Shown here piece by piece: positions 2,663 to 5,600 of a stretch of 9,499 nt of DNA; position 1 is the first letter of the stretch; the number at the start of each line of letters is the position of its first letter. The stretch is taken from contig CAYWGS010000057.1 of NCBI GenBank assembly GCA_964457525.1, positions 1 through 9,499 of the forward strand, given 5' to 3'. The position numbers and the translations under genes were made by a program. The notes beneath the pieces are model-generated. The model was not told the DNA's origin and did no database searches. It saw only the letters and a list, made by a program, of their open reading frames with translations. The DNA is from an uncultured Erysipelotrichaceae bacterium. Its GTDB lineage: Bacteria > Bacillota_I > Bacilli_A > Erysipelotrichales > Erysipelotrichaceae.

Positions 2663-5600
2663 TGCCTTTACGCCTTTTACCGCAATGGTTTGTATACTTT
2701 CTAAACCATTTACTTGATACTTAACTTCATATTGTCCAACTTCATTGAAAGTAAATTGTGTTCCAATGAGTTGACTAGTAACATCCTCACCATTAAAGGA
2801 GACTTGTATGGAAACTTGACTGGATAAATCTCCAGAAATAGGATCAATATAAGAATAATAACTGGATAAACTCTTTGTTTCGCCTTTATTCACTAAAGCA
2901 TATTTCTTCGCACTTAACTCACTTCGTGTTTGATAAGTATATCGAGTTTGAGTGTTTAATGGGTAGTAATTTGTTGGAACTTCGGCACCACTTGGAATCC
3001 ACCCTGACATTGTTCCATCAAGATAGCGATATAAGTTTTGATTTAATCGATCATAACTTGTATCGGATGCTTTATTGCCTGAAATCCAACTTGACCATGC
3101 TCCAAACTTAATAAATTCATATTGTTCATAATAACCACGAGTGGATTCCATAACGCGATAAGCTGTATTGGCTCCCGCATAATAATTTCCATACTTGTAT
3201 CGTACGGATACACCACATCGTGTATGTGGATAGTAGGCATATTGATAATCGCCTGGATGTTGGGCATAAGTCCAATAACCACTTATGACGGAATACTTTT
3301 TCTTAATCCAATCATTACTAAAACCACCCCGTTGAATGTTTGCGGATACGTTGGTACAGGAGTCCCATTCCAAAGTCACATCAGTCCATGCAGTATAAAC
3401 AGTTGGAAGTTGTTTAACGTATTGATATGAACTGTCTGGAGGTGTGCTGGAACCAATTATAGCTTGTGATTTGGTGCGTTCCTTATAATAAGGATTGGAT
3501 TCAAGGATACGAACTGTACCTGTTGCTGGAGTCGTTCCTGGATTCACTTCAACTTTTTCGACCCATCCATTCGGAGAAATTAGATAATCTTTATAATTTT
3601 GAGTACTGACGAGTTGAACTGTACTGGACTGTGTCATCGTCGTTAATGACTCTGGTTGAGTTGTCCAAGTACTAAGTTGTTTATTATCACGATTATCTTG
3701 GATTTCAATTACACGGATGACTTCTAAGCCTGTAGTACCTAAGGTATAAATAATTTCAACTGTTCCCTCTTTGCTGGTATCAACAGTGGATACATTGGTT
3801 GTTATTAGATTCGTAATATTATTCCCTTTTGCATCAACCGCACTCACACCAGTCATGATATTAATCGAATCACCCATCGAGATAACCGTATCATTTGGAA
3901 CTGTCATCTTTGAACGTGATCTTACATAAATCTCATCTAAAGTAATATTCGATTCATTTGGATGTAACTCATCCGCTAAAAATTGGTAATCTGTATAAGA
4001 TCTAGTTTCAGAACGATATTCTTTCTTACTTTGAACGTTGATTGAACTGGTGTCTATAATTTTGTCTTCTTGATACTCACCATATTCACCACTTGATTCA
4101 AAGGTATATAATACATAACGATACTGGGTTTTCTTACAATAAGAACCTTGTGCATCGGTTGCTTTTTCACTTGCACTGCAATCTCCCCATAATCGATAAT
4201 CATAATCTTTATATCCATATAGGTTAACCGTGTTTCCATTTAACACTATTTCTCCTAATAACCCATCTTTCCATGCAAAACCAAAGAGGTTGGTATGTTG
4301 ATATCCACCTAAACCAGATTGCTCACGCTTAGTAGTAGTTCTAATATATCCAGGTTCGACGACTTTACTCGATTCTTTTGTGGTAGACATACTCGAACGA
4401 TATAAAAAACGTTCCTCAACCACAACATTATCACTGCCTGAAATTTGTGTAGTAGTCCAAGCACTCATACCTGTCGTTGAATAGAATTTACGTTTTAATA
4501 GGGATTCTTTATCAATGAGTTCGGTATCCGTATTTGAAGGATTGTATGTTGTTGAAACAACACCGTCAATCTTATAGACCTTTTGTGTTTCAACAATATT
4601 ATTTTCATGCTTCAAAATAGGTTCTTTTTGCCAATTCGTAAAGTTAGTTGGATATCCTCCAAATAAGTACTCTACATAATACAAATAGAACTTTTTACAA
4701 TAGGTTCCACCTGTATCCGTTCCTAAATCAGATGCAATACACCCTCCCCATATCGCGTATTCATAGTCTTTGTAACCATATAAATTTGCAGGTTTCGTTC
4801 CATCAATTGTTACTCGATTAACAAATCCATTTGTCCATGGATTGCCGTATCCTTGAGTATGTAACCAAGATTTTTGTACAGAGTTCAACTCACGTTCTTG
4901 GCTTAAGTATTGATAATTTAAATAGGCATTAGCGTTAACCCAGCGCTCTTCATATTCTTTTTCACGATATTCGGTATAAGTCTCAACATTTTTATCTGTT
5001 GCAACTCCACTTTGACTGGCCAATGTCCAATCAGACCAATTCGTATAATAGACTTGTGAATCATTTACATGCTCAGTTTTCTTTGTTTGATTTCCATTTG
5101 CATCATACTCGAATGTGGTAACTAATCCAGAATCCTCTGTCTTCTTAGTCAATTGATTCATAGAGTTGTATTCAAATCGCGTTAAAACCCCTTCAGCACT
5201 CACTTCCTGAAGCAGATTTCCAACACTATCAAAATTTCGAGTTACGATATTTCCATCAGGTAAGTGCTCTTGTATCACCTTATTTACAAATCGATCGTAT
5301 CGATATAAAGTAACTAGTTCTTCAGAATTGGTTGTGGAGCGAACTTTTCGTTCAAGTTCACCTTCGATGTTATATTGATATTTTTCATAACTACCATCAA
5401 TGTTTTCTATACGAATGAGTCGATGATTTAAATCATAATAAGAGGTTGATCCTTGAACTAAAAGAACATTACTTGCGTTATATTTATCCTCACGGACTTT
5501 ATTCCCAAAACTATCATAAGTGGTTAAAACATAATTTCCATATGAATCCACTTGTTTAGTTAATTGATTTAAATTGTCATACTCAAATCTTCGAGTATTA

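Follow-up and report, generated by a model that had tools for sequence, protein, structure and literature searches.

A tandem pair of orphan cysteine-pair modules inserted in the YD-repeat array of a predicted WapA/RHS-type toxin of Erysipelotrichaceae

Target recognition and entry by the giant RHS/WapA toxins that Gram-positive bacteria export through the Sec pathway is an unsolved problem; for the WapA toxin of S. suis, translocation into recipient cells "remains enigmatic" (PMC12704120). The window analysed here, 9,499 nucleotides of contig CAYWGS010000057.1 from an uncultured Erysipelotrichaceae bacterium, raises a related question. A first-pass annotation had described, at positions 3971-5059, a tandem duplication of a ~187-aa module with a conserved Cys pair and had placed it in no family. 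We asked which protein carries this module, how the duplication is built and conserved, and what the module might do.

The feature lies on the minus strand. Its plus-strand reading is ruled out by many stop codons, and a minus-strand frame without stops runs from nt 9493 to 2 and spans the interval. Codons are numbered from codon 1 at nt 9499-9497, with the Met start at codon 14 (nt 9460-9458), and all features given below are on the minus strand. The single ORF (nt 2..9460), of WapA/RHS polymorphic toxin type, encodes at least 3153 aa from the Met and exits the window at its low end. The full-length protein has 4070 aa in contig L002, whose DNA is 97.6% identical to the window. The N-terminus is signal-peptide-like (MKRIRKILLCLIVFAELMVVLQPVSA, nt 9383..9460), judged by inspection alone from its basic n-region, hydrophobic core and VSA motif, and it is also kept in the orthologue L001. 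Further downstream, a DUF6531 segment (RHS N-terminal plug region, nt 6806..7030; PF20148, E 1.7e-9, 38.3 bits against a cut-off of 24.1) includes RINLNTGNY, which resembles PINLNTGNF, the experimentally mapped N-terminal cleavage site of S. suis WapA-CT1 (PMC12704120). Two YD-repeat blocks follow, both recognized by Pfam, NCBIfam and PDB sequence matches: block 1 (codons ~900-1467, nt 5099..6802) matches the Rhs cocoons 8qja, 7pq5 and 8h8a, and block 2 (codons 2276 onward, nt 2..2674) continues outside the window, where the RHS-associated core and then the toxin follow. In the host protein, the RHS_repeat family PF05593 is found in 19 stretches (E 3.2e-97), and TIGR01643 YD_repeat_2x matches with E 5.4e-57.

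The part of the protein outside the window was read in L002. Its RHS-associated core (TIGR03696, 59.3 bits against a cut-off of 32.5, E 4e-16) terminates in YSDPSGH, a DPxG motif. L002 and its orthologue P0001 have unrelated C-termini, although the 300 aa before them are 55% identical. The C-terminal toxin of L002 has sub-threshold matches only (WHH, E 0.008; Colicin-DNase, E 0.024), and the gene downstream encodes DUF4272 (46 bits against a cut-off of 27). Pfam and NCBIfam searches of the complete protein, and of the first 801 aa separately, matched no LysM, CWB or DNRLRE anchoring domain. Judged by its sequence, the host is a polymorphic toxin of the WapA/RHS type from the Erysipelotrichaceae, with a predicted Sec signal peptide and predicted toxicity, a setting that the first-pass annotation had not given.

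Directly after YD-repeat block 1 come module A (codons 1468-1655, nt 4535..5098) and module B (codons 1656-1842, nt 3974..4534). Module B starts with a linker, DTELIDKESLLKRKFY, and the mutually homologous parts are codons 1483-1655 of A (nt 4535-5053) and codons 1673-1842 of B. The two cores, NLYGYKDYEYAIWGGCIASDLGTDTGGTYCKK in module A (codons 1572-1603, nt 4691..4786; Cys at nt 4739-4741 and 4697-4699) and NLYGYKDYDYRLWGDCSASEKATDAQGSYCKK in module B (codons 1759-1790, nt 4130..4225; Cys at nt 4178-4180 and 4136-4138), are offset by exactly 187 codons. The flanks are collinear, with WSDWT/SAWTT, HTQGYG..W..G/HTNLFG..W..G and VETQKVYK/VQSKKEYR in register in alignment A1. In both respects the first-pass annotation was accurate, and its claim of paralogy also holds: composition-adjusted BLASTP aligns A and B at E=1e-20 (37% over 97 aa), and a more permissive run at E=3.6e-21 (30.5% over 167 aa).

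At the nucleotide level the copies are 43.6% identical over 169 aligned codons and 67.7% identical in the core, and no DNA-level direct repeat was found at 561-nt spacing. It follows, in agreement with the first-pass annotation, that the duplication is ancient and did not arise in assembly. A compositional or chance resemblance might be feared because the protein is Tyr-rich and repetitive overall, but the BLASTP E value of 1e-20 was obtained after composition adjustment, the modules are unlike the YD blocks, no DNA repeat exists, and both copies are conserved in three independently assembled species and two strain-level contigs. We regard chance and artefact alike as refuted.

Within each module, self-comparison and a motif HMM delineate a pair of bracket motifs: YYTNWSDWTLASQSGVATDKNVETYTEYREKE (nt 4955..5050) at the N-terminal end and YPTNFTNWQKEPILKHENNIVETQKVYKIDG (nt 4562..4654) at the C-terminal end of module A, and STTGMSAWTTTQISGSDNVVVEERFLYRSSM (nt 4388..4480) and SSGEYGEYQEDKIIDTSSINVQSKKEYRSET (nt 4004..4096) at the corresponding ends of module B. 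The N-terminal ~32 aa and the C-terminal ~31 aa of the module align in hhalign with E 2e-4 and a probability of 47%. Each copy would thus comprise a ~31-aa Trp-containing bracket motif, a core of ~100 aa and a second bracket motif. The core would contain two long aromatic strands, N-x-YGYKDY-x-Y... and ...YCKK-x-Y-x-Y, connected by a 12-14-residue loop that the invariant Cys pair flanks. The protein holds two copies of the module. A weak candidate for a third copy, codons 2026-2178, which BLAST matched at E 0.002 when composition was not corrected for, is ruled out by an hhalign probability of 0.7%. The idea that the modules are diverged YD repeats came from an uncorrected BLAST match of module B to codons 2778-2862 (E 3e-4) and was not confirmed by hhalign, which gave probabilities below 1% in every comparison of the modules with the YD blocks, with the N-terminal region and with the remainder of the insert.

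Modules A and B open an insert of ~800 aa, in which they are followed, in order, by an Ig-like domain, a region that we call region 3 and a probable second Ig-like segment. This insert sits between two consecutive YD hairpins of the shell. At the sequence level the insertion into the YD array is clean, because the YD flanks, when joined in silico, give an unbroken alignment to ordinary RHS proteins across the junction. The Ig-like domain (Big_3 / Bact_surface_Ig-like, nt 3737..3898) directly follows module B. It scores 21.0 bits for Big_3 in the window against a cut-off of 21.2, the orthologous segment of L001 clears both cut-offs (29.4 vs 27 and 24.1 vs 21.2), and PDB 2kpn is matched with E 0.0017. 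Region 3 (codons 1941-2200, nt 2900..3679) is an orphan, Trp/Tyr-rich segment with its own conserved Cys pair, C2048/C2095. It is not homologous to the modules, and the bracket-motif HMM found no significant further instance in it (best i-E 0.045). A W-x-x-W resemblance between region 3 and the bracket motif is anecdotal. The final segment (codons 2201-2275, nt 2675..2899) is a possible second Ig-like domain with sub-threshold matches only (Bact_surface_Ig-like, E 0.004; Big_3, E 0.023 in L001), and BLAST shows no similarity between it and the first Ig-like domain.

The whole protein is rich in Tyr, and the insert is rich in both Trp and Tyr. Trp makes up 1.6-3.7% of the modules and region 3 versus 0.1-0.5% elsewhere in the protein, and the [ST]xW[STI] motif occurs six times in the protein, each time within the insert. 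Together with the signal-peptide-like N-terminus and the adjoining surface Ig-like domain, this confinement of Trp and [ST]xW[STI] suggests that the modules are extracellular and displayed.

A disulfide-stapled loop in an extracellular domain had been suggested from the spacing of the Cys pair, which is indeed 14 residues in the window for module A (C1587/C1601) as well as module B (C1774/C1788). Across all six known copies neither Cys varies, and the spacing is 12-14. Cys is scarce in the protein (10 in 3164 aa), and the conserved Cys of the mature protein all occur in close pairs (371/394, 1587/1601, 1774/1788 and 2048/2095), the non-conserved ones being singletons. This strict pairing, combined with the rarity of Cys, fits disulfides, and with the signal-peptide-like N-terminus and the adjacent surface Ig-like domains it leaves the suggestion plausible. 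In both AlphaFold2 (AF2) runs, which are of low confidence, the Cys pair borders a loop that connects the longest two of the predicted strands. In two orthologues, module A carries a third Cys inside this loop, which makes a simple one-disulfide picture harder. A further point against the disulfide is that dedicated disulfide-forming machinery is, to our knowledge, absent from many anaerobic Firmicutes.

Does the module belong to a known family after all? Searches of Pfam-A, NCBIfam and PHROGs gave nothing above curated thresholds, with zero or scattered sub-threshold matches, and no Pfam family was matched by more than two of the six copies. No CBM or lectin family matched the module. Against PDB sequences, neither a single sequence nor a six-sequence profile gave a match at E up to 10. 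AF2 models from single sequences of both modules were unusable (pLDDT 29), and a four-sequence alignment gave pLDDT 52.6 and pTM 0.34. With the latter model as query, the best Foldseek matches had E 1.1 in the PDB and 0.24 in BFVD; these negatives are weak because the query model is of low confidence. CBM3 and CBM21 in the Foldseek list, with E above 1 and TM below 0.15, are noise. A likeness to the W-S-x-W / Y-R-Y-R motifs of other Firmicutes surface proteins yielded no family link. The module thus remains without an assignable family, in agreement with the first-pass annotation.

We then examined the distribution of the module. An exhaustive HMM search with a two-sequence profile against 1.84 billion representative proteins found one carrier besides the window and no bridging sequences, and a genome scan added one more carrier. 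Both are orthologues with the same two modules, so that all three carriers are RHS orthologues. A word-indexed protein search with the two modules and the six-copy profile found no match; this tool may miss giant proteins, and its negatives count little because its matches elsewhere were all of 942 aa or less. No instance was found in the phage, plasmid and viral-contig searches. L003, initially taken for a distant relative at 37% identity, is actually a strain-level variant of module B with 88% identical DNA, the 37% having been measured against module A. Within the sequences searched, the module is restricted to three related, uncultured, gut-type Firmicutes (Erysipelotrichaceae).

Among the three orthologues, A-to-A and B-to-B identities are 52-59%, versus 30-35% for A to B, and the duplication is therefore older than the species split. 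Both copies occur collinearly and in the same order in the three independently assembled species and in two further strain-level contigs. The identity of orthologous modules, 52-58% in this comparison, at least matches that of the second YD block (48%). Across the six copies 27 columns are invariant, including N-x-YGYKDY and both Cys, so the core is conserved in the homologues. Between the window and the 97.6%-identical strain, the 375 module codons contain nine synonymous differences and one non-synonymous difference. This ratio and the invariant columns indicate that the modules are maintained by purifying selection, which the first-pass annotation had also proposed; the conservation statistics are thin because the family is known from only three species. 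We have high confidence in this descriptive part: that the modules arose by an old and conserved duplication, where in the protein they are inserted, to which family the host belongs and that known relatives are lacking.

We then propose a model for the function of the modules. After export, the YD repeats would form a cocoon that encloses the toxin, and the inserted block would jut from the outer face of this cocoon. In each module a disulfide would staple the loop between the two longest strands, and conserved aromatic and polar residues at the surface of the module (W, Y, H-T, K-D, D, K, Q) would bind a ligand exposed on a cell, most probably the target cell. A carbohydrate- or ligand-binding surface had been offered as speculation in the first-pass annotation, and our searches matched the modules to no known binding domain. 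Ligand binding would dock the cocoon, and the C-terminal toxin would be released afterwards. An externally displayed binding domain is the most likely function that we infer. We assign a probability of about 45% to the explanation as a whole, namely lineage-restricted, paralogous, all-beta extracellular domains that are displayed and bind a cell surface. Taken singly, outward display, the disulfide and the binding role are tentative, each lying between doubtful and an even call. The N-terminal 800 aa, which have no family match, could equally be the binding part.

Several other explanations deserve consideration, one of which concerns ancestry and fits any functional reading: the module may represent no new fold but belong, after strong divergence, to a known superfamily of the beta-sandwich or lectin/CBM type. 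An all-beta, aromatic-rich module that is predicted to be extracellular would suit such an origin, the alignment is shallow, and Foldseek negatives obtained with a single low-confidence model carry little weight. Set against this are the lack of any bridging sequence among the 1.84 billion representatives, the empty six-sequence profile search of PDB sequences even at E up to 10, and the failure of any Pfam family to match more than two of the six copies; we consider a divergent origin possible, if rather unlikely. A stronger version of our own proposal, in which the module is a new fold and a target-cell receptor-binding element displayed in tandem outside the YD cocoon through a dedicated insertion site, also seems unlikely to us. 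At the opposite end, the modules might bind no ligand and serve as structural decoration or spacers, rigid beta-rich units that extend or brace an unusually large cocoon. Long beta-strands are predicted by AF2 at low confidence, the bracket motifs at both module ends could zip the modules together, and no ligand-binding family signature was found. However, the invariance of R30, H65-T66, K95-D96, D113, K121 and Q142 (alignment A2) in both paralogues exceeds what a spacer usually needs, and ordinary RHS shells manage without such an insert, so that we doubt this reading.

The modules could instead tether the toxin to the cell wall of its producer, like the LysM or cell-wall-binding repeats in the N-terminal part of B. 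subtilis and S. suis WapA. Since no LysM, cell-wall-binding or other anchoring domain is detected in the protein, its anchoring function is unaccounted for, and the aromatic-rich beta-hairpin composition of the modules recalls wall-binding repeats; moreover, the wall-anchoring part of S. suis WapA-CT1 is a separate fragment (PMC12704120). Yet the described WapA anchors are N-terminal to DUF6531 and outside the YD shell (PMC12704120), the modules have no similarity to known wall-binding repeats, and the unmatched 800-aa N-terminal region could do the anchoring itself, which makes wall tethering by the modules quite improbable. Less probable still is that the insert is a functional analogue of the TcB beta-propeller and serves as a gate or coupler, either to close the cocoon or to trigger or conduct toxin release. 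Like the TcB propeller, the insert does interrupt the YD array at a point within the shell, and the total YD length of ~1860 aa is near the size of TcB plus TcC, but neither sequence searches nor Foldseek, run with the low-confidence model, revealed a propeller or related signature. The Ig-like domains in the same block suggest a displayed stalk and not a gate, and no TcA-like partner is evident near the orthologous genes.

If the modules are displayed binding domains, a conserved ~800-aa block with two orphan Cys-pair domains, presumably exposed on the shell, is an obvious candidate for the recognition step of these toxins. The reading as a receptor-binding new fold, if true, would offer a first handle on prey recognition by WapA-type toxins. 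Because the 1.84 billion representative proteins contain no detectable relative, the structure of the module might turn out to be a new fold. Two points limit the interest: orphan domains are not unusual in giant surface proteins of poorly sampled Firmicutes, and the known carriers of the family are just three uncultured Erysipelotrichaceae that are close relatives of one another.

Large YD shells with an extra non-YD beta-propeller that is used for partner docking are also seen in the TcB-TcC cocoons of Tc toxins and in eukaryotic teneurins, and weak teneurin-like PDB matches (9pt5 and 9ifo) were obtained here. Unlike in these systems, the insert consists of two orphan modules and Ig-like domains without a propeller signature, and the analogy is positional and functional only. 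The Rhs cocoon effectors of type VI secretion systems (8qja; 7pq5, RhsA/Tre23; 7q97, Rhs1; 8uxt, Tse15; 8cp6, Tse5) have a homologous YD shell (E 4e-32 to 3e-11) and the same C-terminal core logic as the host protein. They differ in their length of ~1100-1900 aa, in carrying PAAR or clade domains in place of a signal peptide, and in showing no match to the insert, the matches being confined to the YD blocks.

With the Gram-positive WapA/RHS proteins (B. subtilis WapA; S. suis WapA-CT1, PMC12704120) the host shares a putative Sec-type signal, a long N-terminal region, a DUF6531 with an INLNTGN-type motif, two long YD-repeat blocks, an RHS-associated core that terminates in DPSG, a putative C-terminal toxin of variable sequence, a small gene downstream and a size above 300 kDa. 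In contrast to WapA, its N-terminal part has no detected LysM, DNRLRE or cell-wall-binding domain, and its YD array, which is continuous in ordinary RHS proteins, is split by the ~800-aa non-YD block with the two orphan modules. Precedents for domains embedded in YD arrays are found in P0121, which has two Golvesin_C domains between its RHS repeats, and in P0028, an RHS protein with embedded Big_7 and fn3 domains. These embedded domains belong to known Pfam families, whereas the modules described here belong to none, and the two precedents indicate that accessory beta-domains, often in duplicate, can be accommodated within YD arrays.

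An unclassified domain encoded in the window has undergone a genuine, ancient tandem duplication that selection has maintained, and the two modules belong to a segment inserted into the YD shell of a WapA/RHS polymorphic toxin. On its minus strand the window reads as one frame without stops, open from nt 9493 down to nt 2 and continuing past the window's edge; within 3971-5059 the plus strand contains many stops. Codons are numbered on the minus strand from codon 1 (nt 9499-9497), which places the Met start at codon 14 (nt 9460-9458); the first-pass annotation seems to have counted in the same way. 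The two 32-aa Cys-pair cores are found on this strand at codons 1572-1603 (core A, nt 4691-4786) and codons 1759-1790 (core B, nt 4130-4225), and their spacing is 187 codons, exactly the offset given in the first-pass annotation. In BLASTP, module A aligned with module B at 37% identity over 97 aa when composition was adjusted for (E=1e-20), and at E=3.6e-21 with a permissive setting (30.5% identity, 167 aa). In a MAFFT alignment, all the flanking elements named as collinear are in register, and the 14-residue separation of the cysteines claimed for both copies is present in both pairs. The reported low nucleotide identity was reproduced as well (43.6% over 169 aligned codons, 67.7% in the core), and no DNA direct repeat was detected between the modules at the 561-nt offset. 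The original observation is thus confirmed in every detail, and its cautious interpretation is supported; the context it missed is the RHS/WapA toxin. The module occurs twice and no more in the protein; codons 2026-2178 were considered as a possible third copy, but this weak candidate fails profile-profile comparison.

When 1.84 billion representative proteins were searched exhaustively with HMMER and the A/B profile, the one match was P0001 (E 1.4e-90), and a one-genome-per-species scan returned one locus, L001, in the MAG Erysipelotrichaceae bacterium 5C_77. Both are full-length, collinear orthologues, about 52% identical, with both modules at the same position. The modules had been described as not assignable to a family, and indeed none was matched in Pfam, NCBIfam or PHROGs, in PDB sequences (single sequence or six-copy profile, E up to 10), or in phage, plasmid and viral-contig collections. 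A word-indexed protein search with the modules and the six-copy profile was also empty, but such negatives weigh little and call for caution where the domain sits in a giant protein, since this search also missed the 3114-aa P0001 and, for another query, all of the 120 matches listed were ≤942 aa. The known range of the family is three related species plus the strain variants L002 and L003. L003 (1-1453), a short contig, carries a module B variant with 88% DNA identity; its frame diverges from the window past ...NYTDYLIS and stops soon after. The cause may be truncation of the allele, recombination at this point or a chimeric assembly. The gene for P0001, surrounded by housekeeping genes, is interrupted by a frameshift within DUF6531. 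In the ENA contig L004, the orthologous gene (5392-17345) is split into two ORFs of 869 and 3114 aa by a break within DUF6531 (...FGQNWIIISISF* versus ...FGKSWEYNFNY... in the window), so that the gene is either a pseudogene or has been frameshifted by an assembly error. It is followed by four small ORFs (50-129 aa).

Orthologous copies of the module share 52-59% identity and paralogous copies 30-35%, and therefore the duplication is older than the species. Between the window and L002, a strain-level metagenome contig, the 375 module codons differ by 9 synonymous and 1 non-synonymous changes, which together with these identities bears out the proposal of an old, selectively maintained duplication. 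The six copies agree completely in 27 columns: W9, Y29, R30, Y47, H65, T66, W73, G76, N90, Y92-G-Y-K-D-Y97, C105, D113, G116, Y118, C119, K121, Y126, Y129, Q142, I146, V154 and Y160. The first ~32 residues of the module resemble its last ~31 (E 2e-4, probability 47%) with the pattern x-T-N-W/F-S-x-W ... N-x-V-E-T-x-x-x-Y-R/K, so that each module reads bracket, core, bracket. A bracket HMM found no further significant instances. Neither the YD blocks nor the N-terminal region nor the remainder of the insert is related to the modules.

The protein has only 10 cysteines in 3164 codons, one of them in the putative signal peptide. Another eight lie as four close pairs (371/394, 1587/1601, 1774/1788 and 2048/2095), each retained by all orthologues that extend over it; the last is a non-conserved singleton, as are the orthologues' extra cysteines elsewhere. 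The spacing across module copies is 14 or 12, and two orthologues carry an additional, third cysteine in the loop of module A. This pattern looks like that of disulfide-bonded extracellular domains in an otherwise cysteine-avoiding protein, although it is not proof of disulfides. AF2 gave a useless model from a single sequence (pLDDT 29) and a poor one from four sequences (pLDDT 52.6, pTM 0.34); both low-confidence runs predict an all-beta module whose longest strands, PANLYGYKDYEYAIW and YCKKFYLYYVEYLF, are joined by a loop with the Cys pair at its edges. Foldseek against PDB and BFVD found nothing under E 0.2, which says little given the poor query model; the module may have either a new fold or that of a known beta-sandwich, strongly diverged.

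The surrounding protein matches RHS repeats in Pfam (E 3e-97, 19 stretches), DUF6531, and YD repeats in NCBIfam, and its YD blocks match the solved Rhs cocoons 8qja, 7pq5, 7q97 and Tse15 among PDB sequences. The N-terminus, MKRIRKILLCLIVFAELMVVLQPVSA, resembles a Sec signal peptide by inspection. The ~800 aa before DUF6531 (7060-9460, minus strand, codons 14-820) could be assigned to no family, the sole match being Disaggr_repeat (E 0.005); the conserved pair C371/C394 (nt 8318-8389, minus strand) lies here. L002 (JGI Ga0075012_10004430), with 97.6% DNA identity to the window, covers the full protein of 4070 aa, including an RHS-associated core (TIGR03696, E 4e-16) that terminates in YSDPSGH. 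Beyond it, in the 10850-12948 part of L002, lies a 452-aa C-terminal region with sub-threshold WHH and colicin-DNase similarity and WVWHH at its tip, and the next gene downstream encodes a DUF4272 protein, a likely immunity candidate. After YSDPSGH, these 452 aa show no similarity to the 378 aa of P0001, whereas the preceding 300 aa are 55% identical; judged from the sequences, this divergence is the classic polymorphic-toxin pattern.

The YD repeats end at codon 1467 (...TTFEYDA) and restart at about codon 2276 (...DRVTEYTYN...). When joined in silico, the flanks can be aligned without a break at the join to ordinary RHS proteins of many phyla, so that codons 1468-2275 represent a clean insertion separating two successive YD hairpins. 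The inserted block consists of module A (codons 1468-1655, nt 4535-5098, minus strand), module B (codons 1656-1842, nt 3974-4534, minus strand), an Ig-like domain, a 260-aa orphan region and a probable second Ig-like segment (2675-2899, codons 2201-2275; sub-threshold matches only). The first Ig-like domain falls barely below the Big_3 cut-off in the window, and an orthologous copy clears those of Big_3 and Bact_surface_Ig-like. Trp makes up 1.6-3.7% of the non-Ig parts of the block versus 0.1-0.5% in other parts of the protein, and all six [ST]xW[STI] motifs of the protein fall in the block. The orphan region (2900-3679, minus strand, codons 1941-2200) is rich in Tyr (11.5%) and Trp (3.5%), with several W-x-x-W-like motifs and its own invariant pair C2048/C2095, 47 apart; identity to its counterparts in the orthologues is 43-48%, no family matches it, and it is not homologous to the modules. 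Nowhere else in the gene do differences from L002 lie as densely as in codons 2201-2275 (per 100 codons, 14.7 synonymous and 6.7 non-synonymous, versus about 5 and 2-3 in the rest), and the neighbouring modules and first Ig-like domain have changed least. Local recombination could account for this patch.

The block is inferred to be displayed outside the cocoon, with each module stapled by a disulfide and a ligand on a cell surface bound through the conserved aromatic and polar residues. The most likely role of the modules would be to bind the target cell, at a tentative probability of about 0.35. A purely structural role for the modules is unlikely, binding to the producer's own wall is somewhat more doubtful, and a gate or coupling role like that of the TcB propeller is less probable still. 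The distribution is very narrow and the roles are putative, which limits the significance; the modules nevertheless provide a concrete candidate for how Gram-positive RHS toxins recognise their targets, and possibly a new fold.

Together, the modules represent a domain family without detectable relatives inside a known kind of system. Streptococcus suis WapA-CT1, a Sec-exported protein, comprises a signal peptide, an N-terminal part, DUF6531, two Rhs blocks and a C-terminal toxin, and is cleaved within DUF6531 at PINLNTGNF (PMC12704120). The window protein is similar in overall plan, and its RINLNTGNY (codons 825-833) resembles that site. Other WapA proteins are described with LysM, CWB or DNRLRE domains, whereas none of these was detected here with Pfam or NCBIfam. 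An unrelated RHS protein of 884 aa, P0121, carries two Golvesin_C domains between its YD repeats (residues ~287-424 and a second copy), indicating that YD arrays accept embedded accessory domains, and in another, P0028, Big_7 and fn3 accompany the RHS repeats. Such embedded domains may be commoner in YD arrays than usually described.
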